A stretch of 51,807 nucleotides of DNA from Candidatus Eiseniibacteriota bacterium (GCA_043810925.1 JBDRNT010000162.1:1-51807), one strand, 5' to 3'. Positions 202-51,676 are shown, counted from the first letter of the stretch. The notes: a model not told the origin generated them from the letters alone. Numbers and translations: made by a program.

Positions 202-3200
202 ATGGACTATACAATCGACAGCAAGATCGGCAGCGGGAGCTTCGGCGTTGTCTATAAGGCCCACGACAGATCCGGGCGCAGGTGCGCCGTCAAGCTGGTC
301 AAGCCGGGTGGCAGCGGTGCCAAGCTCGGTGCGAGCCTGTTGCGAACTCAATATGAACTGCTTTCATCTCTGACCCACGCGCGAATAGTCAGAGCGCTGG
401 ACTTTGACGCTGATTCATCGCATGGTCCGATGCTTGTGACGGAGATGCTTGACGGTGTCGATCTCAAGACCTACGTTGAAACCCGAGGAATCGGGGATTT
501 AGTCCTCATAACCGCCATGGTGCTTGATGGCCTCCGCTATCTGCACAGTCTCGGAAAAGTCCACGGTGATCTGAAGCCCGATAGCATCATCGTCAGCGAC
601 CTCAGCGGAAGTATCGAGGTGACTCTGATTGATGCCGGCTTCGACTACGGCAGGGGTTCGAAGCTGCCTACGCTGGAGGGGACGCTTGCTTATCTTGCCC
701 CCGAGATAACCCGTCACATGCCGGGTGATGGGCGAAGTGATCTCTACTCGCTGGGGGTCATACTCCATGAGATGCTGACGGGACGTTGTCCATTCGGTGG
801 GGCGGGTGAGGAGGAGATACTCGAAAATCACCTTGAGCTGGTGCCGGATGATCCGAGCAGTCTCAACCCTGATGTCGAAGTAGCCTGGGACGAGTTCGTG
901 GGCACGCTGCTTAAGAAGGAAGCTTTCTTAAGGTACAATGATGCCGTCCACGCCGGACTTGAGCTCGAGAGGCTGTTTGGGCCTTCCACGGTCTTTCTCG
1001 ATAACGTACTGCCGCCGGACTCCGCAGTATTGGTGGGCAGGGACGAAGAGATCAAGGGACTCAAGCACTGCCTGCTGCCATCCCGCGGTAAGGGTGTGAT
1101 TGTCCGGAGTCAGCGCGGGTGGGGTGTGAGTCGCGTGCTCCACGAGATCGAATGCCTTGCCAGGTTGAGCGGTTACAAGGTTCATACGGTCTCGCTTGAT
1201 GAGAAAATGCCGGGCTTTGCCCAGGTTGTCGATGCGATCCTTGGTGACGGGGCTGCGGCTGCAGGAACGCCAGCCGGCCTTGAACCCGGCTCAGGCGGCA
1301 GTGAAGCTGACTACCTCGATAGACTTCTTGGTGCATGTTATTCGAATCTCTCGCCGGACAGGAAGCACCTGCTTGCCATAGACCGAGGCGAGGTGATGGA
1401 TCAGCGCGAGCTGCGGATGCTCGGTACGATAGCGGCGCGGCTCGGCGATCTTGTGAGTGTGGTCATCGGATACCAGACCGACGAACCTCCCGCAGAGAAG
1501 GTTGCCGGTCATGAGATCTTTGAGACAGTCCGTCTCGAGCCGCTCGACCGCGGCACGCTGAACGTATTGCTGAAGAGCTACTTCGGTGTGAGTGCTGTGC
1601 CGGATGATCTTCTCGAAGAGCTGCATAGCGTCAGCGGTGGCAATCCCGATTTCGTAGGTCTTATGCTCAAGCATCTCTGGAGCACAGGGAGTGTGAGGAT
1701 TGAGGCGAAGCAGGGGGTGCTCGAGGTCGTCTGGGACAGAACGATGGGGATACCCAACACAGTCAGAGATGTAATGCAGGAGAGGTTGCGCGGCCTGAGT
1801 CCCCAGGCATCGGAAGTCCTGAAGTTCATCTGCGTGGGTGTAGGACAGATCGAGACAACCCTGCTGGCGGGTGTATCATCCGAAGGTAAGGTTGACCGGG
1901 CCCTGCGGGAGCTGATCGGGAGCGGTCTGGTTGAGGTGAGCGAAGACAAGACCTCAGTGCGCCTCAAGTGGAAGAATCTCACCGAACTCATACGTGACAC
2001 GATACCGCCTGAGACCCTGAAGGATGCAAGCCTCAGACTTGCATCCTTTATCGAAGCGAAACCCGGGAGTTGCCGTGATTACTTCGTGCTGGGAACACTC
2101 TATCTTGATGGCGGTGAGCGTGAACGTGCCTTTGCATATCTGGTTCAGGCCGGAGACTACTTCGCGGGCTTCTCGGCCCGGGACGCGATCTCGGCCTATG
2201 CCAAAGCCCTGCAGTGCGGCGCGGGTTCCGATCAGGTTGCGGAAGTCGAGGAAAAGATCGGGACTATCAAGCTGGCCCGGGGTGATGCGGCCGATGCGGC
2301 AGTCCACTTTGAACGAGCTGCGACCTCCAGACCTTCGGCAGCCAGGAAGATGGGCTGGGTCGCGGCCCTACGGGGCGCTCTGGCCGAGGCCGCCGAGATT
2401 CTGTCACGCTGTGAGACCGCAGCCGGCCAGGCAGGTGATGTCATCGAAACAGCAATGATACGTTCCGATCTGGGGCACGTCCGCTCTCTCGAGTCACGCA
2501 AGGACCTGGCCCTGGACCTGCTAAGACAAGCGCGGGCCGTCTTTATTGAGCAGGGCATGCCGGGCGAAGCCGGCAGGGCTGCGAACCGCATAGGCATCGC
2601 CGAGATGCGCTCGGCCAACTTCAAAGGGGCTGCGCGTGCCTGGATCGAGGCGATTGCGGATTTCGAACAGGCCGGCGACAGCAAGACCGCAGCAGTTTGT
2701 CTCATGAACCTGGGTCTGTGCCATCGCAAGCAGATGGACTTCGACCGTGCAGATGACGCCTTGAAGCGCGCCCTGGCGGTTTTCGATGAATTGAAGGCTC
2801 TTCACGAGCGGGCAAGCTGCTGTCAGAACTACGCGATCTTGATGCTTGACCTCGGAAATCTGTCGGGTGCCCTTGGGCTTGCCGGGGAGGCGCTGAGCCT
2901 TAACACATTGCTGGGCAGGAGTGCGGGGGTCGTGGCCCCGACAATCCTGCTGTCCGCGATAGCGATTGAGTCGGGCAACTGGGTGGAGGCGGAGAAGAGA
3001 CTTTCGGAACTGCTTGAGGACGGTCCTTTCCTTGATGACTATCACCTGGCCATGGTTAAGCGGTATCTCGCTGCAACGAGTGCTATGCGTGGAAAGTGTG
3101 GACAGGCCGTCGAGCTCATAGACGAAAGCCACGATCTGGCCTGCAAGGCGGATGACGCCGAGGGGCAGGGGCAGGCGATGCTCCAGAAGGGTGAAATACT

Positions 3201-5250
3201 TCTCAGGTGTGACAGGCCGAAGGAGGCTCTTCGGGTTGCCAGGAAGGCACTGGTAACACTGGGTCTTGCCTCGTCGCCGCTTCTGGCGGATGAGGCCCAG
3301 CGTGTGGTGGGTGAGGCGCTTGCGGTGTGCGGGGATACGGAGGCGGCGATAGCGGAGCTGATGCAGGCAAGGCAGGGATTCGAGGGCCTACCGGAATCTC
3401 TCCATATCGGACGTGTATTTCGGGCGCTGGCGCTGGCGCTTTATCGGGAAGGGGACCACGAGTCGTTCACCGAGTACATCAATCGTTCGATAGAGATCTT
3501 CAGAAACGCGAATGCACGTTATGACTACGCCGTGGCATTACTGCTCGGTGGCAGCGAGGCGAGCGACCGGGGAAATCTCTTGCAGGCAAGGCACTACCTG
3601 CTTGAGGCTGCGCGGATTCTCGAGACACTTGACATAAAGGACCTCCATGAAAGGGCGGTGTGTGAGATGGACAGGATCCCGGCGGGTGATCTGGAAACAC
3701 GGGCTGTCTCGTCACTCAGCAAGATATCCGAAACTCTAAGCTCCAGCCACGATCTTACGACCGTGCTCAACCTCGCGATGGATCTTGCAATCGAGTATCT
3801 GGGTGCGGAGAGAGGCGCTCTCATGCTCGAAGATGATGGGACCGGTGATCTCAAGACTTTTGTCGAGCGAAAAATGGACCGCGAGTCACTGCGTGAGGTG
3901 ATGGGAATCAGCGGGTCGATCGTCGAATCAGTCAGATCGTCGGGGGAGTCTGTGATAGAGGGTGACGCCACCAAGGATCCCAGATTCAAGGACAGCCAGA
4001 GTGTGAGGATTCATAACGTGATGTCGGTGATGTGTGTTCCGCTCACGATGGGCAGCAAGTTTCTGGGGATAATATATCTCGACAGCCGGGGTGTGCCGTC
4101 GAGCCTCTCCACGCTTGAGAAGGCGTTCGTTGAGGCGTTTGCCAACCAGGTTTCGCTCGCGATTGAAAATGCCAGACTTGTGGGGAAGCTGCATGAAGAT
4201 GTTGCCGACCTCAAGACCAGAGCCAGAGAGAAGTACAGCCACGCAAATATAATAGGACCGGGCAAGAAGATGCAGGAGGTTTTCAGGAAGGTTGAAATAG
4301 CAGCCGGCAGCGAGATAAGGGTCATGCTGACAGGCGAGAACGGTACGGGCAAGGAGGAGATAGCGCGGCTCATTCATGAACGAAGCCAGTGGAGCGATAA
4401 ACCGCTTGTCATCGTCAATTGCGCTGCGATTCACCATGATCTGATCGAGACCGAGCTCTTTGGAATAGAAGAGCGTGTGGCCACAGGCGTATCCTCCCGG
4501 TCGGGCATCTTCGAACGGGCAGACGGAGGTACAGTTTTCCTTGACGAGATAGGCGACATGCCGCTTCCGACCCAGGCAAGAGTCCTCCGGGTTCTGGACC
4601 GTCACGAGTTCGAGAGAGTCGGTGGATCGAAGGTACTCAAGGTCAAGATCCGGGTCGTGAGTGCAACAAACAAGGATCTCAATGAACTGATCGAGAAGGG
4701 CCTCTTCAGATCAGACCTCTATTTCAGGCTCCATGGAATGCGGATACACCTTCCCGCTCTGCGCGAGAGAATGGAAGACCTGCCTGCTCTGATCGATTAC
4801 TTTGTCGGGAAGTACGCGTCTCAGAATTCAAAATCCAGAATGTCGGTGTCCGACCAGGCACTCGAGATTCTCAAGACCTATATCTGGCCGGGAAATGTCC
4901 GGGAGCTGGAGAGGTGCATAGAGCATGCAGTTGTTGTTGCCGAAGGGACCCGGATCCGCCCCGAGCATTTTCCGATCGAGATCCACGAGAGCCTGAGAGC
5001 GGCCGATATCGACGACAGGATCCGCGGGGCTCGCAGCTCGACACTTCCCGAGGCCGTCCGGCGCCTCGAGCAAGATCTGATCGCGGTGGCGCTGGAGGAG
5101 TGTGGTGGGGTTAAGACACTGGCTGCGGAGCGGCTCGGCATACATGAAAGCACACTGAGGAAGAAGATGAAGATCCTGGGCATAGGCCCGGGTCACAATT
5201 CCGGCAATCAAACGCCCGCAAGCAGTCGTGAGAACGTACGAATCGTATAA
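202..5250 (+). CDS. Multidomain sigma54-dependent activator: Ser/Thr kinase-like, degenerate STAND/AAA, TPR repeats, GAF, sigma54 AAA+, Fis HTH
   Basis: Kinase motifs IGSGSFGVV, AVK, HGDLKP, GTLAYLAPE, SDLYSLG; LVGRDEE...GGNP STAND-like region; helical TPR-like repeats; GAF (SVMCVPL...LGIIYLDS); GENGTGKE, GGTVFLDEIG, FRSDLYFRL, WPGNVRELE; C-terminal AAERLGIHESTLRKKM. Confidence 0.92.
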   Translation: MDYTIDSKIGSGSFGVVYKAHDRSGRRCAVKLVKPGGSGAKLGASLLRTQYELLSSLTHARIVRALDFDADSSHGPMLVTEMLDGVDLKTYVETRGIGDLVLITAMVLDGLRYLHSLGKVHGDLKPDSIIVSDLSGSIEVTLIDAGFDYGRGSKLPTLEGTLAYLAPEITRHMPGDGRSDLYSLGVILHEMLTGRCPFGGAGEEEILENHLELVPDDPSSLNPDVEVAWDEFVGTLLKKEAFLRYNDAVHAGLELERLFGPSTVFLDNVLPPDSAVLVGRDEEIKGLKHCLLPSRGKGVIVRSQRGWGVSRVLHEIECLARLSGYKVHTVSLDEKMPGFAQVVDAILGDGAAAAGTPAGLEPGSGGSEADYLDRLLGACYSNLSPDRKHLLAIDRGEVMDQRELRMLGTIAARLGDLVSVVIGYQTDEPPAEKVAGHEIFETVRLEPLDRGTLNVLLKSYFGVSAVPDDLLEELHSVSGGNPDFVGLMLKHLWSTGSVRIEAKQGVLEVVWDRTMGIPNTVRDVMQERLRGLSPQASEVLKFICVGVGQIETTLLAGVSSEGKVDRALRELIGSGLVEVSEDKTSVRLKWKNLTELIRDTIPPETLKDASLRLASFIEAKPGSCRDYFVLGTLYLDGGERERAFAYLVQAGDYFAGFSARDAISAYAKALQCGAGSDQVAEVEEKIGTIKLARGDAADAAVHFERAATSRPSAARKMGWVAALRGALAEAAEILSRCETAAGQAGDVIETAMIRSDLGHVRSLESRKDLALDLLRQARAVFIEQGMPGEAGRAANRIGIAEMRSANFKGAARAWIEAIADFEQAGDSKTAAVCLMNLGLCHRKQMDFDRADDALKRALAVFDELKALHERASCCQNYAILMLDLGNLSGALGLAGEALSLNTLLGRSAGVVAPTILLSAIAIESGNWVEAEKRLSELLEDGPFLDDYHLAMVKRYLAATSAMRGKCGQAVELIDESHDLACKADDAEGQGQAMLQKGEILLRCDRPKEALRVARKALVTLGLASSPLLADEAQRVVGEALAVCGDTEAAIAELMQARQGFEGLPESLHIGRVFRALALALYREGDHESFTEYINRSIEIFRNANARYDYAVALLLGGSEASDRGNLLQARHYLLEAARILETLDIKDLHERAVCEMDRIPAGDLETRAVSSLSKISETLSSSHDLTTVLNLAMDLAIEYLGAERGALMLEDDGTGDLKTFVERKMDRESLREVMGISGSIVESVRSSGESVIEGDATKDPRFKDSQSVRIHNVMSVMCVPLTMGSKFLGIIYLDSRGVPSSLSTLEKAFVEAFANQVSLAIENARLVGKLHEDVADLKTRAREKYSHANIIGPGKKMQEVFRKVEIAAGSEIRVMLTGENGTGKEEIARLIHERSQWSDKPLVIVNCAAIHHDLIETELFGIEERVATGVSSRSGIFERADGGTVFLDEIGDMPLPTQARVLRVLDRHEFERVGGSKVLKVKIRVVSATNKDLNELIEKGLFRSDLYFRLHGMRIHLPALRERMEDLPALIDYFVGKYASQNSKSRMSVSDQALEILKTYIWPGNVRELERCIEHAVVVAEGTRIRPEHFPIEIHESLRAADIDDRIRGARSSTLPEAVRRLEQDLIAVALEECGGVKTLAAERLGIHESTLRKKMKILGIGPGHNSGNQTPASSRENVRIV

Positions 5251-5258
5251 TCATACGA
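5243..5258. promoter_or_regulatory. Palindromic site TCGTA-N6-TACGA (candidate enhancer, distal copy)
   Basis: TCGTA TAATCA TACGA within the longer inverted repeat AATCGTAT..ATACGATT; preceded by GTACG like the second copy. Confidence 0.5.
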
Positions 5259-5406
5259 TTGGGTGATCATGAATTCCCACCTGCGGGTCCTTTCTGCCAT
5301 ATCGTTCTAACCTCAATCAAACCAATTGGAAATCAGCATTCATACTGAGATCGACTGCCTGCCTATCCTGTATCGATCCTACTGGAGGTCTGAAGAAAGT
5401 ACGCTG

Positions 5407-5422
5407 TCGTACATATATACGA
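5407..5422. promoter_or_regulatory. Palindromic site TCGTA-N6-TACGA (candidate enhancer, proximal copy)
   Basis: TCGTA CATATA TACGA, about 100 nt upstream of the -24 element, a typical bEBP UAS position. Confidence 0.55.
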
Positions 5423-5476
5423 GCGAGTCGTTTGGTTTCAGTTGAACTCAGATTCATCTTATGTTAAGCTTATAAA

Positions 5477-5489
5477 TAGCAAATAGTTA
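5477..5489 (+). promoter_or_regulatory. IHF-like binding site
   Basis: TAGCAA-ATAG-TTA, one mismatch to WATCAANNNNTTR, in an AT-rich tract between the candidate UAS and the sigma54 promoter. Confidence 0.4.
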
Positions 5490-5521
5490 CAGGGCCAACA
5501 AATTCTACGAACTTGTAGATA

Positions 5522-5537
5522 CGGAACAGGCCTTGCA
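5522..5537 (+). promoter_or_regulatory. sigma54 (-24/-12) promoter of the small peptide gene
   Basis: CGGAACAGGCCTTGCA = GG-N10-GC with TTGCA at -12. Confidence 0.7.
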
Positions 5538-5591
5538 GTAGAGGCCAGAGGGGCGAATGCGATCGGTGAGGGGAAGGGAGGAGGCTTAACG

Positions 5592-5804
5592 ATGCGGACA
5601 AAGCGTTTGCATTGGGCAGTGATCGCGCTCTTTGGCATTTTGGTACTGACTATGATGTCACCGTGCTTTGCGAGCGGTGAGGATGAAGAACCTGGAGATC
5701 CGTATGATCTTCCACCGGGAAGTGACTCCCTTGACCCGACGCCGCGCACTCTTAGCGATTTCTGGATGATCGTGATGGCCATGGCATTTCAGTTGGCGCT
5801 CTGA
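5592..5804 (+). CDS. 70-aa micro-protein with signal peptide, acidic Pro-rich core and hydrophobic C-terminus
   Basis: Strong RBS GGAGGAGG; basic N-terminus MRTKR, hydrophobic stretch, probable cleavage after CFA; sigma54 promoter upstream. Confidence 0.75.
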   Translation: MRTKRLHWAVIALFGILVLTMMSPCFASGEDEEPGDPYDLPPGSDSLDPTPRTLSDFWMIVMAMAFQLAL

Positions 5805-5846
5805 AGAGTGGTTTGTTTGTCTGAGCCCAGGGGCTAAGGTGCCGGC

Positions 5847-6596
5847 GTGGGCGAGGGGGGGGTGGTGATTGTGGTAACAATGAGTGAAGATCCGACTATG
5901 AAGCCTGTTGTTCGACTTGTGATCATGGCCGCGGCCTGTCATGCCAATGTCCTGCTTGTGGGTGAAAGCGGGGTCGGCAAGACTTATCTGGCACGACAGA
6001 TACACGAGGCTTCCACCTCGTGCCCGGGGGATTTCCGCGTTCTCTTCTGTGCCCCCGACGCGGCCACCGAAATGTCGACTGACAGACTGATGGACAAGCT
6101 TCTGTCGTTGGAACACGAAGGTGGAACAATCTATTTAAAGAACATCGATGTTCTGAGTGCCATAGGTCAGCGGAAACTGCTGGGCTACCTGGATTCAAGA
6201 GAGCGCAGGATGAAAGCAGGCTGTCTCTCGAGCGGGGGGTTTGCTCGACTGATCTTCTCCAGCGGGCGAGACCTGAGACTGGAGGCTGCGGCGGGAAGGT
6301 TTATGAGGCAACTCTACCTGAGGGCCTCAGTGATAACCATAGCCGTTCCCCCCTTAAGACAGCGAGAGGCAGACATAGTTAGCCTGGCAAGACACTTTGT
6401 CAGTCTGTATTCGGACCAGGAACGCAAAGGTCTGAAGGGCCTCAGCGATGATGCGGAGTGCATGCTGACAAGGGTTTCCTGGGAGGGCAACATCCACGAG
6501 CTCAAGAACACGATGAACCGGGCTGTGGTGTTCGCCGAAGATGGTCAGGTTTTAAGTGCCGTCCATCTGGAGGGTGTGCTCCAGCAGGTCGGTTGA
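5847..6596 (+). CDS. Stand-alone degenerate sigma54-activator-type AAA+ domain (no GAFTGA, no HTH); true start probably 5865-5880
   Basis: GESGVGKT Walker A, GRFMRQLYLR, PPLRQR, WEGNIHELKN; Walker B altered to IYLKNID. Confidence 0.8.
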   Translation: MGEGGVVIVVTMSEDPTMKPVVRLVIMAAACHANVLLVGESGVGKTYLARQIHEASTSCPGDFRVLFCAPDAATEMSTDRLMDKLLSLEHEGGTIYLKNIDVLSAIGQRKLLGYLDSRERRMKAGCLSSGGFARLIFSSGRDLRLEAAAGRFMRQLYLRASVITIAVPPLRQREADIVSLARHFVSLYSDQERKGLKGLSDDAECMLTRVSWEGNIHELKNTMNRAVVFAEDGQVLSAVHLEGVLQQVG

Positions 6597-6626
6597 CGGC
6601 CGGCACGGAGGCAGAAGCTAATCTAT

Positions 6627-7019
6627 ATGTTAAGAAGAGACCTGATTGAGGAGTCACTGCATTACTTGATGATCAATGTGCTCGTCGACAAGCTCGAGAA
6701 GGACGGTTTCACAGTACGGGCCGATCACGTGGGTGGTTTAAGGGATAGGCCGGAGTCCATCGAGGGGTATGTCCCTGACATAGAGGCCAAAAGGGGTGCC
6801 GAGGTACAACTGATCGAAGTGGAGACCGAGTCCACCCTGGACTCGGAGGAAGCTCGCGAGCAGCTGGCCAAACTGACCTCGGCATCCCGCGGCAAAGTCT
6901 ATCTGGCCGTGCCCCATGATTGCCTTGATAGGGCAAGGGGTGTCAGAGATGACCTCAAGGCCGGTGTCGTCATCCTGCCATGTTATCCCTTTGTCAGGTA
7001 CGTCGGGACGCCCAAATAG
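6627..7019 (+). CDS. Small hypothetical protein with a PD-(D/E)xK nuclease-like motif
   Basis: LEKDGFTV...YVPDIEAKRG...LIEVET pattern; 130 aa. Confidence 0.65.
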   Translation: MLRRDLIEESLHYLMINVLVDKLEKDGFTVRADHVGGLRDRPESIEGYVPDIEAKRGAEVQLIEVETESTLDSEEAREQLAKLTSASRGKVYLAVPHDCLDRARGVRDDLKAGVVILPCYPFVRYVGTPK

Positions 7020-7029
7020 GACCGGCGTA

Positions 7030-7072
7030 TGCCATGATGGCAAGTCCGGACTCCTGCCCTGCCATACAGGCA
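7030..7072. promoter_or_regulatory. Paired palindromes (candidate bEBP enhancer for dnaK)
   Basis: TGCCATGATGGCA (7030-7042) and TGCCATACAGGCA (7060-7072), 30 nt apart, about 105-150 nt upstream of a sigma54 promoter. Confidence 0.55.
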
Positions 7073-7175
7073 TAAGTCCCGCGCTCCACGCGCCTCATCA
7101 TACCGGTTGATGCGTCATCGTAACTCTTTATAAGTCAATTGATAAGCATGGAATCTCCCGACTGTTTACCTCCAA

Positions 7176-7191
7176 TGGCATGCCGCTTGCT
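7176..7191 (+). promoter_or_regulatory. sigma54 promoter of dnaK
   Basis: TGGCATGCCGCTTGCT, near-consensus TGGCAC-N5-TTGCW. Confidence 0.8.
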
Positions 7192-7293
7192 GTATAAGCG
7201 CTCGGACAGGTGAATAGCATGTGAGAAAACATACCGAGTGAAGTGCAGGCCCTTCATGGGATTGCCACTCTGCTCACAAGGGGGGAGATTCAA

Positions 7294-9201
7294 ATGGGAA
7301 AGATCATAGGAATTGACCTGGGAACAACCAATTCGTGTGTGGCAGTGATGGAAGGCGGGGAGCCGGTTATCGTTGCCAACCAGGAAGGTTCGAGGGTGAC
7401 GCCCTCGGTAGTTGCTTTCACCAAGGCGGGAGAGCGGCTTGTCGGGTTGACTGCCAAGCGGCAGGCGATCACAAATCCGGCCAACACCGTTTACTCCATC
7501 AAACGGTTCATGGGCCGGAAATACGACGAGGTGCGCGGTGAGATCGGCGAGGTCCCGTACACGGTCGTAAAGGGTCCAAATGGAGATGCGCGGGTAAAGG
7601 TCGGTGATAAAGAGTATTCACCGCCCGAGATCTCGGCGATGATACTACTCAAGATGAAGCAGACGGCCGAGGCCTATCTTGGCGAGAAGGTGACTGATGT
7701 CGTCGTAACAGTTCCGGCCTACTTCAACGATAGCCAGAGACAGGCGACCAAGGATGCCGGTAAGGTTGCCGGTCTCAACGTGAAGAGGATCATCAACGAG
7801 CCTACCGCAGCATCCCTGGGGTACGGTCTGGGCAAGAAGAAGGACGAGAGGATAGCCGTGTTCGACCTCGGTGGGGGCACATTCGATATATCGATTCTCG
7901 AGATCAGCGACGGCGTCTTCGAAGTCAAGTCGACCAATGGTGACACGCATCTCGGCGGTGACGACTTCGACCAGCGAGTGATCGACTGGCTTGCAGACCA
8001 GTTTCAGACGGAACAGGGTATAGATCTCAGAAACGACCCGATGGCGCTTCAGCGGCTCAAGGAGGCGGCGGAACGTGCCAAGTGTGAGCTTTCCTCGGCA
8101 CTCGAGACGGCGATCAACCTGCCGTTCATAACTGCTGATGCCAGTGGGCCGAAACATATGAACATCACGCTCACGAGATCGAAGCTCGAACAGCTTGTGG
8201 ACGAGCTGATCGAGAGAACCGTGGGACCCTGCCGGTCGGCGCTTGCGGATGCCAAGCTGGAAGCCTCTGCCATCGACGAGGTGGTTCTTGTCGGCGGACA
8301 GACGCGAATGCCGAAGGTCCAGGAAGTCGTGAAAAAGATGTTCGGCCGGGAACCGCACAAGGGCGTGAATCCCGACGAAGTAGTAGCCGCCGGCGCAGCG
8401 ATACAGGGCGGAGTGCTTGGTGGTGAGGTGAGGGACGTTCTTCTGCTCGACGTAACACCGCTTTCACTGGGTATCGAGACCAAGGGTGGGGTCTTTACAA
8501 AGATCATCGAGCGGAACACCACTATCCCGACCAAGAAGTCAGAGATCTTCACCACGGCGGAAGACAGCCAGACGGCGGTTGAGGTTCATGTCTTACAGGG
8601 TGAGCGAGAGCTTGCGACGGCGAACAAGTCCGTAGGCAAGTTCCACTTGACCGGGATCCCGCCGGCTCCGAGGAACGTACCTCAGATAGAGGTTGCCTTC
8701 GACATCGATGCCAATGGTATACTCAACGTGTCCGCCAAGGACATGGCTACGGGCAAGGCGCAGTCCATCAGGATAGAGGCGTCAAGCGGATTGACCCAGC
8801 AGGATATCGACAAGATGGTCCGTGACGCGGAAATGCACCAGGCTGATGACAGGCGCAGGAAGGAAGAGGTAGAGGCCAGGAACAAGGCGGACCAGCTCGT
8901 CTATGAGACGGAGAAGAACCTCAAAGAGATGGGCGACAAGGTTTCCCCCGACGGCAGGGCCAGGATCGAGGCCGGAATCGGTCGGGTCAAAGAAGCACTT
9001 GATGGAAGCGACGTCGATGAGGTAAAATCGAGTACGGAAGCTCTGGTTGGCCTGTGGAGTGACGTAGCCAAGACATTGTACGAGAAAGCGGCTACCGGAG
9101 CGAGTACTGCCGGTCAGACTGGCGGTTCGGCTGGTGCGGGGGAGAGTTCCGCGCAGGAACGGGAAGAGGCTGTCGAGGCCGACTACGAAGTCGTTGACTA
9201 G
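7294..9201 (+). CDS. dnaK: Molecular chaperone DnaK (Hsp70)
   Basis: [31 protein letters not shown]-terminal ADYEVVD; start moved to the ATG after the G-rich RBS. Confidence 0.99.
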
Positions 9202-9610: not shown

Positions 9611-10237
9611 TTACCTGGACCCTGTTGCCTCCAGTACGAGCGGCAGATCGATCCATGATTCCACCGGGGTGTAGCCCAGTTTTGCCGCCTCGAATCGGAA
9701 TCTCCAGGCACTCTCAAGCACTCGTTCCCTCACTTCAGGATTTTCCAGTGTGTCTTCTATGATTACCCTCCGGGGCAGTCCCTTTGCTGAAACGAGGATT
9801 CTGACATTGACCTCTATGGTCGAGATCCCGAGGTCCTCAAGGGTCGGGGGTACGATAAAGCGGGGGACCGGCGGGAAGAACTGAGGTTCAACATTGCCGG
9901 CGGGTATGTCGGCCCGTGCGATACCGGCACCCTCCGGCGAGCCACCGGGGGTCGCGGGTTCTCGAGTCGCCGTCGGCGCCGGGACCTCCTCCACGATCTC
10001 AAGCACTGCGCGGTCCACGGTCTCGGGCGTGCGTTCCACCTCAATGGGGATAACCTGCATCACCATATCGGAAAGACCGGACCAGGGATCCCTGGTTCTG
10101 CCCTCTCTCATGGCGGGCATCTCCCGGGGAAAGAAGATATGCAGGAACTGAGCGGGTAGAAGCACAAGACCGGCGTGTAACAAGATAGATATGATCACCC
10201 ACCTGCGAAGCGACGGATGTGTTCTCTTAACGGTCAT
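9611..10237 (-). CDS. TonB C-terminal-like membrane-anchored protein
   Basis: N-terminal TM (ISILLHAGLV), Pro/Glu-rich linker, C-terminal VRILVSAKG...WRFRFEAAK..G.PV.SW. Confidence 0.65.
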   Translation of the reverse strand: MTVKRTHPSLRRWVIISILLHAGLVLLPAQFLHIFFPREMPAMREGRTRDPWSGLSDMVMQVIPIEVERTPETVDRAVLEIVEEVPAPTATREPATPGGSPEGAGIARADIPAGNVEPQFFPPVPRFIVPPTLEDLGISTIEVNVRILVSAKGLPRRVIIEDTLENPEVRERVLESAWRFRFEAAKLGYTPVESWIDLPLVLEATGSR

Positions 10238-12309
10238 TGCTCAATCTCGGACACGATCTTAAAGCCGGTCGTGGCAGTTGTCATCCGCCCGCTTAAGGTA
10301 TCGGTCACATCGATCACGATGTCATAGTCGCCGGTCGAAAGGGAAGAGAGATCGACCCCGAGCACTTCGTGTCTCCGCGAACCCCTGCTCCTGAGCTCAT
10401 ACTTGCTCCAGATCGAGGTGAGGCCGCCGGACGTTTCATCATCCGCGGTTCCGGTCAGGGCCTTGAGAAGCCGCATGAACCGCGGCTCGACCTTTTCCCT
10501 CCCGACGATCCTGTAACTGACTTCGGCCTCACCCGTGCCGCGGGCGTCGGTCAAGAGGTTATAAATGCTGAATGCCAGATAGGCCTTGCCCCGTCCGAGA
10601 TAGACATGGGAGGGATTCGGCGGCCCGTCTGATGCGAACCGGATCTCTATGTCGCTGATCTCCAGGCTGTCTCCAAAACCGCGGGCCGTGACTGCTCTGT
10701 TGGTGAAGCCGACGGCACCCGTGGTCTTCGATTCCATTGACACCGCGGCAAGCGAGCCTCCAGGCGGGATCTGGACGGTGAGGCTTCCGATCAGCGGGTA
10801 CTCGGTCTGGTAAAGCGCGCTGGAATCCGCGCGCAGCTCGGCCGTGAACCTTGTGCGCGTGACATCCCCGTATATGCTGTCAAGCACCGCGACCTCGATG
10901 TCGAAATCACCAACCGGCCATTCGTAAAGAGGTTCATACTTGACGCCTCTTGTGTCGCATCCGTATATGATCTTCAGACCCGCTCTTCCCATGTCGTCCA
11001 CGACGTTCAGGGCATCGAGCACGACTCTCATCCGCTTCTTTATCTGGGATTCATAGATCTCGGGTACGTTCTTCTCGAGGTAGGCATAGACATACGCACT
11101 CCAGTCCTTCTCGTATGGGAATCTGAAATCACCGTTCATGAAGGTGTCCTCGAAGTTAAGCGAGAAACCGCTATACTGCCATTTCCACCTCCGCCTCGCC
11201 TGCCGGATCGGTCTGGCCCTGTACCGGCTCACGGGATCGCGCGAGTCGAAGTTCTCCCAGCCGTCCACCCCGGCCATGGCACTACTCATTTGGGCCGGAC
11301 GGGGCATTGATGTCTCATTAGCAAAGACATCCGACCCGAAGGGATCGTAGTACCAGGCAAGCGGCCTGCCGTAACGAATGTAGACCTCGCCACGCGCCGT
11401 CTCCGATCCCGTCTTGCCCAGTCTCGGGACCGTGAAGTGGAAGTCCGCGAATCCAACTCTTGCGAGATGCTCGACAAGCCTTTCGTTTACTTCCGTTGCG
11501 GGGTTGGGGTCCCGCTTCTTCCAGAGCATCCGGTTGGCTGATTTCATGTCACCGGTGAGCTGTGTTGCCGCAGCCTCCTTCAGCTCCTCCGGGGTAGCCA
11601 CAAGCTCCACCGACATGTACCGGTTGCGACGTGGTTCGTCCATGACACCGAGCGCCCTGGTGAAGGTCTCCGAGGAGGCTTCGATGTCCCTGATCTCGGA
11701 AAGCGCCATGGCCAGGAGCAGCAGATCGTCGACATTGAGACTGTCCTCGGGAAACGACTCAAGCAGGATGATTGATGAGTCGGGTCTGCCGAGATCAAAA
11801 TAGCATTGGGCCAGGTGCCTGCGCGCGCCCGGATAGGCCGGATGAGACTCCTCCACGAGCTGAAACTCATCTCGTGCATTCAAAAACGAGCTACGCTGCC
11901 ACTCGTCGACGCCGCGCTCAAGGTAGGCTTCACCCAATCTGAGATGCGCAAATCCGTTCTCCGGGTCCCATTCGAGAAGGGTCTTGAGTTCCTTCACCCC
12001 GTTGTTCCAGTAAGTGCTTTCGAAGTACATCTCCGCAAGGAGCAGCCGGTAATCCGGATTTCGACGATCGTGTTTGACGGCGAGCTTCATTTGCTTCACA
12101 GCGGCCGATCTTCCACTGGCGGTGCCTTCGGCAAAGTAGATCGCCGCCAGCTTGACATAGAGCATGGATGAGTCAGGATAGGTCCAGATCAGTTCCTTAA
12201 GAGTCCGCTCAGTGTGCACTTCACCACTCAGGGAGCGGCCGGCAGGGAGCAGTCCGGACAGGAACAGGACAACGGACAGCCCCGTCGCACAAAACCAGAC
12301 TTGCTTCAA
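10234..12309 (-). CDS. GWxTD-domain TPR protein (signal peptide)
   Basis: TPR-like N-terminal half; W.KRDPNPATEVNERLVEHLARV and GSETARGEVYIRYGRP. Confidence 0.8.
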   Translation of the reverse strand: MKQVWFCATGLSVVLFLSGLLPAGRSLSGEVHTERTLKELIWTYPDSSMLYVKLAAIYFAEGTASGRSAAVKQMKLAVKHDRRNPDYRLLLAEMYFESTYWNNGVKELKTLLEWDPENGFAHLRLGEAYLERGVDEWQRSSFLNARDEFQLVEESHPAYPGARRHLAQCYFDLGRPDSSIILLESFPEDSLNVDDLLLLAMALSEIRDIEASSETFTRALGVMDEPRRNRYMSVELVATPEELKEAAATQLTGDMKSANRMLWKKRDPNPATEVNERLVEHLARVGFADFHFTVPRLGKTGSETARGEVYIRYGRPLAWYYDPFGSDVFANETSMPRPAQMSSAMAGVDGWENFDSRDPVSRYRARPIRQARRRWKWQYSGFSLNFEDTFMNGDFRFPYEKDWSAYVYAYLEKNVPEIYESQIKKRMRVVLDALNVVDDMGRAGLKIIYGCDTRGVKYEPLYEWPVGDFDIEVAVLDSIYGDVTRTRFTAELRADSSALYQTEYPLIGSLTVQIPPGGSLAAVSMESKTTGAVGFTNRAVTARGFGDSLEISDIEIRFASDGPPNPSHVYLGRGKAYLAFSIYNLLTDARGTGEAEVSYRIVGREKVEPRFMRLLKALTGTADDETSGGLTSIWSKYELRSRGSRRHEVLGVDLSSLSTGDYDIVIDVTDTLSGRMTTATTGFKIVSEIEQ

Positions 12310-12448: not shown

Positions 12449-13087
12449 ATGAGGAAGAAACTGTGGTACCTCTTTGTCTTTGCCCTGGCCATGGGATATC
12501 TGGAAGCAGCCGTCGTCGTTTACCTGAGACAGCTCTTCTATCCCGACGGTTTTGCATTTCCCATCAAACAGATAGACACCGGCCACGCCTTTGTAGAGCT
12601 TGGCAGGGAGGCGGCAACGGTTTTCATGCTGCTGGCCGTTGCGTTCATCGCCGAGCGGACGAAGAGGGGCAGGTTGATCTGTTTCATTTTGCTGTTCGGG
12701 ATCTGGGACATCGCCTACTACCTGTGGCTCTGGGTTACGATATCCTGGCCGGCCTCGCTTCTTACGTGGGATATCCTGTTTCTGATTCCCGTGATCTGGA
12801 CAGGTCCGGTTCTTGCGCCTGTGCTGGTATCCGTGCTGATGATTGTGACCGGGCTCGTCTACTATGTCCGCAAAGACCAGGCCGAAGTAGTGCGCATGTC
12901 AAAACTCGAGTGGGTCTTCACAATATCGGCTGCGGCGATCATCTTCGGGTCCTTCACGCTTAATCACGGTGTGGCGTTGGGGGGTGGGGTCCCTTCCAGG
13001 TTTGCCTGGGAGGTGTTCGCCGGAGGTATGGCTTTAGGTGTTGTGGTTCTTACAAGGGTGGTACGCCGGCTCACTTCCCCGGCGTGA
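12449..13087 (+). CDS. Hypothetical integral membrane protein
   Basis: Multiple hydrophobic helices; YLEAAVVVYLR, ELGREAAT, GIWDIAYY, WDILFLIP. Confidence 0.75.
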   Translation: MRKKLWYLFVFALAMGYLEAAVVVYLRQLFYPDGFAFPIKQIDTGHAFVELGREAATVFMLLAVAFIAERTKRGRLICFILLFGIWDIAYYLWLWVTISWPASLLTWDILFLIPVIWTGPVLAPVLVSVLMIVTGLVYYVRKDQAEVVRMSKLEWVFTISAAAIIFGSFTLNHGVALGGGVPSRFAWEVFAGGMALGVVVLTRVVRRLTSPA

Positions 13088-49999: not shown

Positions 50000-51676
50000 A
50001 TGAAGAGAATCCTTCTTGTTTTGATGGTGATGTGGGTTACGCCGCTCTGTGCGGCTCCGGCCGGAGTCCCTGCGGCGTCGATGGTGGTGGAGTGGGAAGG
50101 TGGCGGGATAAGCGTCGGTGACTTCGTAGCCTGGTGGGAGCGGATTGACCCGCCTGATCGCCCGCCGCTTTCGACCATCGAAGAGAAGACCGCCTTCCTC
50201 GAGAGCATGATTAGTGCGAGCCTGATGCTGGCCGAGGCCGAGTCGCTCGGGCTCGATCATGATCCCAACGTCGTTGACTGGATCAGAAGCAGAAGAACTT
50301 CGCTTCTGATGGATGAGCTCATGGCACAGGCAACCGCGGGCAGGCTGGGGATCGACGACGAAGAAGTCGAGCACTTATACCTGAGAAGACTCACGCAGGT
50401 GGTGGCACGGCACCTCATAACCCCGACTCTTGATGAGGCCGAGGCCATGATCGACTCGATAAACTCAGGCGTGCCGTTTGAGGATCTGGCGATGAGGCAC
50501 TCCACCTGTGCTTCGGCCGCCAGGGGTGGGGCTCTGGGAGCCGTCAGGTGGGGGGACTTCTCGGATAGATGGTCCGAACAGGCGTTTCGGCTCGAGCCCG
50601 GCGAGATCTCACCGCCGTTTAAGGTCGAGACCGGTTACGGGATCGTGAAGATTCAAAGCAAGACCCTTGTCGAGCCTCCCAACCCGGAAGCGGAGAGGCA
50701 GGCCATAAGGAATAGACTTGAGAAGCAGCTGCTTTTTGAGGAAAAGAAGGTTTTCACGGACTCGCTCAGACTGGCCTACGGGTTCGATATAGATGAGGAT
50801 GCTGTGATCGAGCTCTGCTCCAGGTACGCGGTCAAGCTCATGGAGTTGGGTGAGACCAGGGAGGTTGTGGATATCGATGTAATACCCGACCTCATGGATA
50901 GCGAGAAGGCGAGACCGGTTGCAACCTACGAGGGCGGCTCGCTCTCGACCGGCGAGCTTGTCGATATAATCTTGGGTTACCCGTACGCGGTGAGACCGGA
51001 ACTCGACAATCCCAACCAGATGATCCCGCTCGTCTGGAGACAGGCCAGGGATACGCTGCTTGTCATGGAAGCGGAGAAGCGCGAGCTGGATAAGCTCCCG
51101 AAGATTGCCGTACCACTCCTGAAGGTCAGGCAGAGAAAGCTGGCGGCGGTGCTGTTCCGGCATCTCACTCAGGATGCAGTGGTCCCCGAAGAGGAACTAC
51201 GCGCTCACTACGAAAGTGACCCGGAAGCTCAGCGGTTTCCGCGAGCCCATGTTGCGTCCAAGATCCTGCTCTCCAGCCGCGAAGCCGCCGACTCGTTGCT
51301 TGAGTTGATCGAGATGGGTGAGTCCTTTGAGGAGCTTGCGCGCGAGAACTCCCTTGATCCTTTCTCAGCACCCCACGGCGGCGACCTCGGACTGGTGAAG
51401 GAGGGCAAGGATGAGGAATTTGACGGGTTCTTCGCACAAATGGAGGTGGGCGATATCCGGTATTTCAGGAGCCTCGAAGGCCATCTGATCATGTGGTTGA
51501 GAGAGAGGCATGAAAGCAGGATCCCGACCTTCGAACAAGTGAGGCATGTCCTCACCACGTCGATGCTGCCGGTCTATAAGGATCAGATGCTGATGGACTG
51601 GATTGCCAAGAAACGTGAGGAGCTCGGTCTTACGATCAACCACTCGGTCTTAGAGCAGATCAAGTTAGGTTCCTGA
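50000..51676 (+). CDS. SurA/PrsA-like peptidyl-prolyl isomerase with two parvulin domains
   Basis: Signal peptide from ATG 50000; ARHL...FEDLA..HS...GGALG and KIL...FEELARENS.D...GGDLG. Confidence 0.88.
   Translation: MKRILLVLMVMWVTPLCAAPAGVPAASMVVEWEGGGISVGDFVAWWERIDPPDRPPLSTIEEKTAFLESMISASLMLAEAESLGLDHDPNVVDWIRSRRTSLLMDELMAQATAGRLGIDDEEVEHLYLRRLTQVVARHLITPTLDEAEAMIDSINSGVPFEDLAMRHSTCASAARGGALGAVRWGDFSDRWSEQAFRLEPGEISPPFKVETGYGIVKIQSKTLVEPPNPEAERQAIRNRLEKQLLFEEKKVFTDSLRLAYGFDIDEDAVIELCSRYAVKLMELGETREVVDIDVIPDLMDSEKARPVATYEGGSLSTGELVDIILGYPYAVRPELDNPNQMIPLVWRQARDTLLVMEAEKRELDKLPKIAVPLLKVRQRKLAAVLFRHLTQDAVVPEEELRAHYESDPEAQRFPRAHVASKILLSSREAADSLLELIEMGESFEELARENSLDPFSAPHGGDLGLVKEGKDEEFDGFFAQMEVGDIRYFRSLEGHLIMWLRERHESRIPTFEQVRHVLTTSMLPVYKDQMLMDWIAKKREELGLTINHSVLEQIKLGS

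Follow-up and report, generated by a model that had tools for sequence, protein, structure and literature searches.

Introduction

The phage-shock (Psp) operon is transcribed with sigma-54 and encodes the small envelope proteins PspB and PspC, which are uncleaved, span the membrane once and have cytoplasmic parts. Here we describe an operon of a comparable kind in a 51,807-nucleotide (nt) stretch of DNA from Candidatus Eiseniibacteriota bacterium (GCA_043810925.1 JBDRNT010000162.1:1-51807; this whole stretch is called the window below), in which positions 5592-5804 of the plus strand form an open reading frame (ORF) for a protein of 70 amino acids, the micro-protein. Comparison with related genomes marks the ORF as a genuine gene, and its product may be exported and tethered to the membrane, on the envelope side of a dedicated enhancer-dependent circuit. 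As in the Psp operon, a small envelope protein would be made from a sigma-54 promoter together with a co-transcribed protein that restrains the activator, and the activator gene lies next door. However, the micro-protein has a cleavable-looking signal peptide and lacks a cytoplasmic part, and the presumed brake is a degenerate AAA+ domain, whereas that of the Psp system is the PspA coiled coil. Pfam and NCBIfam searches gave no Psp family match for the micro-protein or its neighbors, the only similarity being the generic AAA+ resemblance to PspF.

Small peptide genes also accompany regulators in the Rgg/SHP and other RRNPP systems, which belong to Firmicutes, use no Sec signal peptide and rely on HTH-TPR receptors and an oligopeptide importer. 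Rgg/SHP loci resemble the present one in that the peptide gene lies beside a TPR regulator, the peptide has an acidic residue followed by a hydrophobic C-terminus and the promoter is probably controlled by the regulator. Here, by contrast, the neighboring gene encodes a 1682-amino-acid kinase/STAND/GAF/sigma-54 activator, and the host belongs to a diderm candidate phylum.

Two further comparisons concern the gene that follows. In Rhodobacter sphaeroides, according to PMC7277832, the master sigma-54 activator FleQ turns on an operon for a truncated second activator, FleT, and the two form a mixed complex; this pair is the closest precedent for the degenerate ATPase that is co-transcribed with the micro-protein. 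FleT is described as an activator, whereas the ATPase here has neither the GAFTGA loop nor the Walker B Asp-Glu and is therefore more likely to be a brake or an adaptor than an activator; the FleQ/FleT account mentions no exported micro-protein. For monitoring substrates (the class of SecM, MifM, VemP, ApcA, ApdA and ApdP), PMC7897499 used as search criteria a gene directly upstream of sec or yidC, a length of 80-200 amino acids, and an N-terminal topogenic signal followed by a hydrophilic part of at least 40 amino acids. Like them, the micro-protein gene is a small ORF directly ahead of another gene, and its product has a predicted export signal at the N-terminus and a conserved C-terminal end (in this case within groups of genera). 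Its C-terminus, however, is a predicted hydrophobic helix rather than a polar arrest motif, and it departs from the monitoring substrates in its downstream gene, its size and the length of its hydrophilic spacer. The locus is of a known kind, in which an enhancer-dependent operon encodes a small envelope protein together with a modulator of the activator; the components and their combination are new.

A lineage-specific protein-coding gene

Translation of 5592-5804 (+) yields exactly the 70 residues and stop codon given in a preliminary description of the window. Taken alone, the ORF is unremarkable, as 112 ORFs of at least 40 amino acids were counted in the first 14 kb of this G+C-rich window, and sites with at most two mismatches to the sigma-54 consensus TGGCAC-N5-TTGCW are no more frequent in the window than in shuffled sequence (12 versus 19.2 expected). 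Neither the ORF nor the promoter-like site exceeds chance by itself, and the case therefore rests on comparison across genomes.

A protein search of 61 related genomes gave clear matches in 14 other genomes (E 9.5e-44 to 4.6e-3), comprising 11 of the 12 genomes of the same family and all three of the sister family; the remaining matches had E values above 0.02 and either lay within long unrelated frames or contained stop codons. When a profile of the 15 proteins (A1) was searched against the 18 species genomes of the phylum, exactly one copy was recovered from each of 15 (E 3.6e-32 to 1.3e-21). No paralogues were found in the source genome, where the next matches had E values of 0.17 and 0.42. 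Three genomes gave no profile match. In one of them, G012, the sixteenth genome of the order and 57% complete, the contig starts within the second gene downstream, so that the micro-protein locus is cut off. G016 and G017 are each 96% complete and represent another order; the neighboring genes are likewise missing from them, and hsp20 takes the position immediately before dnaK.

The frame runs without internal stops for 69-76 codons in every one of the 15 loci and starts with ATG or GTG, while identity to the window protein ranges from 26 to 94% of amino acids. Summed over six independent pairs, the differences at codon positions 1, 2 and 3 were 89, 54 and 127 (chi-square versus equal thirds 29.6, 2 degrees of freedom), the 3 > 1 > 2 order of a coding sequence. 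Because of this single-copy conservation, the fixed length and frame and the coding substitution pattern, the micro-ORF is, on the comparative evidence, a genuine protein-coding gene that is specific to the lineage. A 177-nt contig from one RNA-seq library is identical to positions 5653-5829, a weak hint of transcription that has no bearing on translation and might also stem from DNA carry-over. All sequencing runs that matched did so with small shares, and contigs from three DNA runs and two contigs from RNA libraries cover only parts of 5200-7300. On the opposite strand, the openness of ORFs differs widely among the loci.

Searches of larger collections extended the family without attaching a name to it. 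A word-indexed search of 5.8 billion clusters returned 51 proteins of 51-100 amino acids, nearly all unnamed or labelled 'hypothetical' and none with a Pfam domain. An exhaustive hidden Markov model search of 1.84 billion representatives gave 33 matches, 31 of them standalone proteins of 51-103 amino acids; the two long repetitive matches (439 and 949 amino acids; E 6e-6 and 2.3e-5) were dismissed as compositional. The family alignment holds 72 small members, of which 68 were tabulated after four fragments had been dropped. No relatives were found in Pfam, NCBIfam, PADLOC or the PDB: a Pfam scan of all 15 locus proteins gave just two single-member matches (E 0.061 and 0.15), and a PDB profile search gave nothing below E 1.5. 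The top score in a search of the ESM Atlas, 0.82, was under the useful range. In the literature, no paper combining 'Eisenbacteria' with 'sigma-54' and none containing the tail string was found; the Eisenbacteria papers among the matches listed are, by title and abstract, ecology or genomics surveys, and those on dnaK and sigma-54 are unrelated. The libraries and papers searched contain no description of the family, which occurs in a single order of an uncultured phylum.

Tripartite anatomy of the micro-protein

The division into a signal peptide, an acidic core with a GDP motif and a hydrophobic tail, proposed in the preliminary description, is conserved across the 68 relatives. The predicted signal peptide (residues 1-27; 5592-5672, +) consists of MRTKR, a hydrophobic core and SPCFA, with a predicted signal peptidase I cut after Ala27. 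A basic N-terminus followed by a hydrophobic core is present in every aligned row of the family alignments. Position -3 is C in 59 members, G in 4, S in 3 and T and L in 1 each, so that 67 of 68 have a small residue (C, G, S or T); position -1 is A in 59, G in 6, V in 2 and L in 1, which makes 65 of 68 Ala or Gly; and position +1 is D in 49 and N in 9. Across the 68-member alignment, this is the pattern of a Sec-type signal peptide with a signal peptidase I site. Processing as a lipoprotein by signal peptidase II was rejected, since the Cys is absent from 9 of the 68 members and the residue preceding it is mostly P, V or T.

The anionic, proline-rich core (residues 28-56; 5673-5759, +) carries conserved G-D-P, P-P-G-(C/S) and P-T motifs. 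Within it, G35, P37 and P49 are invariant, D36, P42 and T50 are at least 90% conserved, and PPG occurs in 8 of the 15 loci. The mature part has median values of 44 amino acids, 7 acidic residues, 1 basic residue and 6 prolines over the 68 members.

The protein ends in an uncharged hydrophobic tail, FWMIVMAMAFQLAL (residues 57-70; 5760-5804 including the stop codon, +), with a hydrophobicity of 0.76 and a hydrophobic moment of 0.10. High hydrophobicity combined with a low moment characterizes the 14-residue tail in 13 of the 15 loci, and an acidic residue precedes it in 13 of 15. The version MI(L/V)MAMAFQLAL is common to 38 family sequences with differing signal peptides and acidic parts, and the tails of other genera are different in sequence and equally hydrophobic. 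Conservation also extends to the nucleotide level: in a comparison of three genera, 7 of the 8 degenerate codons were identical within the last 14 codons (5760-5801), versus 5 of 14 elsewhere in the ORF. The same stretch, 5760-5801, holds an 8-bp palindrome, GCCATGGC. A PEP-CTERM/exosortase sorting signal was not supported, as the end of the tail has no basic residue in any of the 15 loci and a search of the genome (91.7% complete) for the exosortase family PF09721 gave no match. Taken together, the basic N-terminus, the -3/-1 pattern and the hydrophobic tail of 13 of the 15 loci fit the earlier suggestion of an exported or membrane-tethered product.

An apparently dedicated sigma-54 control region

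Both control elements named in the preliminary description, a ribosome-binding site and a sigma-54 promoter of the gene's own, gain support from conservation. The Shine-Dalgarno sequence GGAGGAGG (5577-5584, +) lies 7 nt before the ATG, and a purine-rich ribosome-binding site precedes the micro-protein gene in 15 of 15 loci. The -24/-12 element CGGAACAGGCCTTGCA (5522-5537, +), with GG at 5523-5524 and GC at 5535-5536, has two mismatches to the consensus. A GG-N10-GC element with 1-4 mismatches over the 11 specified bases is found 45-63 nt before the start codon in all 15 loci, and L031 has a second, equally good candidate at 79 nt. The genome encodes rpoN (at G000:C37). The GG and GC doublets, the upstream enhancer described next and the presence of rpoN are the hallmarks of a sigma-54-dependent promoter, which we predict on these sequence grounds.

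Upstream of the promoter are three palindromes. Two form a distal tandem pair: TCGTG-N6-TACGA (5226-5241), with one mismatch, which overlaps the 3' end of the regulator gene, and TCGTATAATCATACGA (5243-5258), which matches TCGTA-N6-TACGA perfectly. The third, TCGTACATATATACGA (5407-5422), is also a perfect match and lies about 100 nt upstream of the -24 element. Fourteen of the 15 loci have the distal pair, at about -345/-365 relative to the start codon; in the remaining one, L035, the contig has only 290 nt upstream and ends before the position of the pair. All 15 loci have the proximal palindrome, with at most one mismatch, between -170 and -188 relative to the start codon. The palindrome core, CGTAy-N4-rTACG, occurs only 9 times in the 3.85-Mb genome, 2 of these copies being at the micro-protein locus, and it precedes none of the 83 other strong sigma-54 promoter candidates. 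The arrangement is that of a textbook enhancer-dependent promoter and appears dedicated to the micro-protein operon.

Between the enhancer and the promoter lies an AT-rich block, TTAAGC...CAAATAGTTAC (5464-5491, +), which resembles a site for integration host factor (IHF); a CA(A)-N4-5-GTTA block was read by eye from the alignment at the AT-rich position in 12 of the 15 loci. In the 5' untranslated region, the motif GCGATCGG (5559-5566, +) is exact in 8 of the 15 loci, and GATCGG is found in 10. Directly upstream of the -24 element is an inverted repeat, TCTAC-GAACTT-GTAGA (5504-5519); at L023, a locus of the same genus, the repeat differs on both arms yet remains complementary, and it was not seen in other genera.

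Conserved gene neighborhood

The gene order is conserved as giant sigma-54 activator, micro-protein, degenerate activator ATPase, nuclease-fold protein and dnaK. As far as the contigs reach, the same neighbors surround the micro-protein gene in all 14 other loci, which are thus the positional homologues on which the preliminary description had made its reading depend. The regulator (202-5250, +; 1682 amino acids) combines, by Pfam, a Ser/Thr kinase, AAA_16 (STAND-like), TPR, GAF, sigma-54 AAA+ and Fis-type HTH (HTH_8) domains. It lies upstream of the micro-protein gene in 12 of the 14 other loci, the remaining two being cut by contig ends, and is the presumed activator of the operon.

The degenerate activator ATPase, a pseudo form of a bacterial enhancer-binding protein ('pseudo-bEBP'; 5847-6596, +; 249 amino acids, ATG at 5880), adjoins the micro-protein gene in 14 of 14 loci. 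Walker A is kept, with GESGVGK invariant; the GAFTGA loop is deleted and there is no DNA-binding HTH domain. The Walker B Asp-Glu is present in 0 of 13 orthologues: the window protein has K-N in its place, and the first position is basic in 12 of the 13. From these features, the protein is likely to be a poison or adaptor subunit of the neighboring activator. A metagenome scan with its alignment recovered two close relatives, both cut at the contig start, and thus no new upstream contexts; the other 78 loci kept were ordinary activators with 31-39% identity.

The third cistron (6627-7019, +) encodes a protein of 130 amino acids with a weak PD-(D/E)xK, archaeal Hjc-like signature: PF18743 matched at 19.8 bits, below the cut-off, Hjc chains matched with E values of 0.02-0.1, and residues of the PD..E.E type are conserved. 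In a scan of 185,579 species, this family was found in just 15 genomes, the same ones that carry the micro-protein. The next gene is dnaK in 13 of 14 loci, and the L012 contig ends before it. Only 42 nt separate the micro-protein stop codon from the first possible ATPase start, and 30 nt separate the ATPase gene from the 130-amino-acid gene; we infer that the micro-protein gene and the downstream cluster share one transcript. No convincing membrane segment was recognized in the regulator, the ATPase or the nuclease-fold protein, the best 19-residue hydropathy windows of the regulator (1.66) and the ATPase (1.94) falling inside the GAF and P-loop folds. Thus, the micro-protein would be the only product of the unit located in the envelope. 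A defense-system reading of the cluster was rejected, given that PADLOC returned only generic kinase and AAA matches, none of them for the micro-protein, and that the locus has a fixed core position.

Between the micro-protein and ATPase genes

The motif CCCAGGGGC (5826-5834, +) follows the micro-protein stop codon by 10-23 nt in 15 of 15 loci, with the variant CCCGGGGGT in L012. A GTG 4 nt after the motif opens a mini-ORF of 9 codons (5839-5868, +) that overlaps the start region of the ATPase gene. A start codon is found 3-4 nt after CCCAGGGGC in 13 of the 15 loci. In 10 loci the frame is a mini-ORF of 9-15 codons, and in 5 it forms an N-terminal extension of the ATPase gene; in the window, a run of 8 G separates the mini-ORF and ATPase frames. 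The idea that CCCAGGGGC is a genome-wide repeat was dropped, its 47 copies falling within the 29-115 of composition-matched controls. An Rfam search of 5250-7300 with E up to 1 returned 0 matches, the consensus fold of the intergenic region had 6 pairs, 0 of them compensatory, at -0.29 kcal/mol, and three loci folded singly had z-scores of 0.94, -1.39 and 1.08. With no stable or covarying RNA fold in these analyses, the idea of a structured RNA was abandoned.

Possible functions of the micro-protein

The reading to which we give an even chance is that of an exported, membrane-tethered small protein, the envelope-side first product of a dedicated enhancer circuit. The precursor would pass through the Sec pathway and be cut by signal peptidase I after Ala27, at a small-x-Ala site, to give a mature peptide of about 43 residues. 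Its anionic, proline-rich part, with a net charge of about -6 to -8, would lie in the periplasm, and the uncharged 14-residue C-terminal helix would hold the peptide in or on the membrane. The neighboring kinase/TPR/GAF regulator would bind the TCGTA-N6-TACGA palindromes and drive the operon, and the co-transcribed degenerate ATPase could feed back on the regulator by mixing into its ring. The micro-protein itself would then be a small membrane-tethered regulator or effector, with a logic similar to that of the small membrane proteins of other sigma-54 stress operons. A freely diffusing signal is not favored.

Small proteins are routinely missed in annotation, and this one would stand first, and be the best conserved, among the outputs of a sigma-54 enhancer circuit of its own, in a candidate phylum with no cultured member. 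The circuit would join a cytoplasmic kinase/STAND/GAF sensor to an envelope micro-protein, and it contains two non-canonical activator ATPases, the regulator with RVATGV in place of GAFTGA and the degenerate protein that lacks the loop, Walker B and a DNA-binding domain. Should the peptide be a sensor or a signal, it would be a new link between enhancer-dependent transcription and the envelope; should it be just a small membrane protein, the locus would offer a clean natural case for the modulation of sigma-54 activators by degenerate subunits.

Several observations weigh against a membrane-tethered product of such a circuit. At 14 residues, the tail falls short of a normal membrane span, and it has no flanking basic residues, which makes retention in the membrane uncertain, and two members from the sister family have less hydrophobic, more amphipathic tails that contain Asp. 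Conservation of the tail is also much stronger than that of the signal peptide, synonymous sites included, which a passive anchor does not account for. In the L1 loop of the regulator (about 4474-4491, residues about 1425-1430), RVATGV takes the place of GAFTGA; the VATGV core is kept in the 8 aligned orthologues of the regulator, and in 16 further activator domains from the same genome the loop is of the GAFTGA type, G(A/S)(F/Y)T(G/D)x. Judging by mutational work on the GAFTGA motif, the RVATGV loop should weaken the contact with sigma-54, and the regulator may therefore not activate sigma-54 itself. Finally, all 15 loci come from one order, and their shared gene order is perhaps partly a matter of inheritance.

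Among the alternatives, the protein could be an uncleaved hairpin of two helices, with a signal anchor and the C-terminal helix on either side of an acidic periplasmic loop and a basic N-terminus that meets cytoplasmic partners. Its hydrophobic ends, basic N-terminus and acidic loop obey the positive-inside rule, and small hairpin proteins are common regulators. We nevertheless regard a hairpin as unlikely, because conservation is much stronger in the -3/-1 pattern and the +1 Asp than in the hydrophobic core, as expected of a cleavage site, and because 14 residues are too few for a regular helix that spans the bilayer. A processed peptide signal, the idea put forward in the preliminary description, is an unlikely alternative; here a second cut would release the tail or the acidic core of the exported precursor as a cell-cell or autocrine signal, which the kinase/TPR regulator would finally sense in a positive autoregulatory loop. 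It would account for the position of the gene, which adjoins a TPR-containing regulator and stands behind the presumed target promoter of that regulator, for the acidic residue before the tail in 13 of the 15 loci and for the tail being the most conserved part of the protein; the logic would resemble that of the short hydrophobic pheromones encoded beside TPR receptors in Firmicutes. However, the regulator appears to be cytoplasmic, and a peptide importer would be required, of which the locus has none; no gene for a processing protease or an exporter is adjacent, an all-hydrophobic peptide of 14 residues would be poorly soluble, and the tail is wholly different in sequence from genus to genus although the other parts of the circuit are preserved. 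A fuller version, a diderm peptide-signaling loop in which the precursor is trimmed at both ends, the TPR/STAND sensor reads the tail or core directly or after re-import and the dead ATPase acts as the brake, seems improbable to us; such a loop would be of a kind not known in diderm bacteria and would report on the envelope or on neighboring cells.

An export-monitoring leader would act in cis, as SecM, MifM and VemP do: through pausing at PPG or at the C-terminus, its translation or export state would govern how the mini-ORF and the ATPase are translated. Such a leader would explain the frozen synonymous sites of the last 14 codons and the invariant CCCAGGGGC with its mini-ORF between the micro-protein and ATPase genes. 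PPG is available in 8 of the 15 loci, and the N-terminal topogenic signal, the conserved C-terminus and the directly following gene are three of the common features given in PMC7897499. By the search criteria of that paper, however, 69-76 amino acids fall short of 80-200 and a hydrophilic part of about 29 amino acids falls short of at least 40. Moreover, the downstream gene encodes a degenerate sigma-54 activator ATPase rather than a Sec or YidC component, the tail shifts in sequence between genera yet stays hydrophobic, which suits lipid better than a conserved ribosome tunnel, and no stable or covarying RNA structure was found; we consider such a leader quite improbable. A precursor of a ribosomally synthesized and post-translationally modified peptide (RiPP) or a bacteriocin is very unlikely; in its favor are the small size, the Cys and the leader-like N-terminus. 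A scan of 8 neighbors and 10 further ORFs revealed no modifying enzyme, dedicated transporter or immunity gene in the conserved cluster or the next 15 kb, in line with the preliminary description, which had held a RiPP less likely for want of adjacent modifying enzymes. The N-terminal segment is of the Sec signal type rather than a RiPP leader, the peptide is strongly anionic, the mature part lacks Cys in 22 of the 68 members, and the gene is single-copy at a fixed core position in every genome that carries it. Least credible of all is a chance ORF in conserved non-coding DNA that yields no protein: although ORFs of this size are common in G+C-rich DNA, all 15 loci retain the frame, the length, the start with its ribosome-binding site and the stop at 26-94% identity, substitutions follow the 3 > 1 > 2 order, and the tripartite architecture persists despite sequence divergence.

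A separate sigma-54 promoter of dnaK

The dnaK gene has a near-consensus sigma-54 promoter of its own, TGGCATGCCGCTTGCT (window features at 7030-7042, 7060-7072 and 7176-7191), and inspection by eye showed a similar element before dnaK in each of the 14 loci examined. Its enhancer differs from that of the micro-protein operon, consisting of two copies of TGCCA-N3-TGGCA. The only other strong sigma-54 promoter in the genome with TGCCA-N3-TGGCA precedes an Hsp20-like ORF of 148 amino acids (G000:C37, about 50985-51137). These promoters may thus define a small heat-shock regulon that depends on sigma-54 and is distinct from the micro-protein operon.

In two of the three sister-family genomes (L029 and L030), about 1.7-1.8 kb of extra sequence lies between the nuclease-fold gene and dnaK, where the other loci have about 250-350 nt. 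Beside dnaK, most loci carry genes for TonB-like and GWxTD/TPR proteins and for a multi-pass membrane protein with no family assignment (9611-12309, -, and 12449-13087, +); the gene order on this side may simply be shared ancestry.

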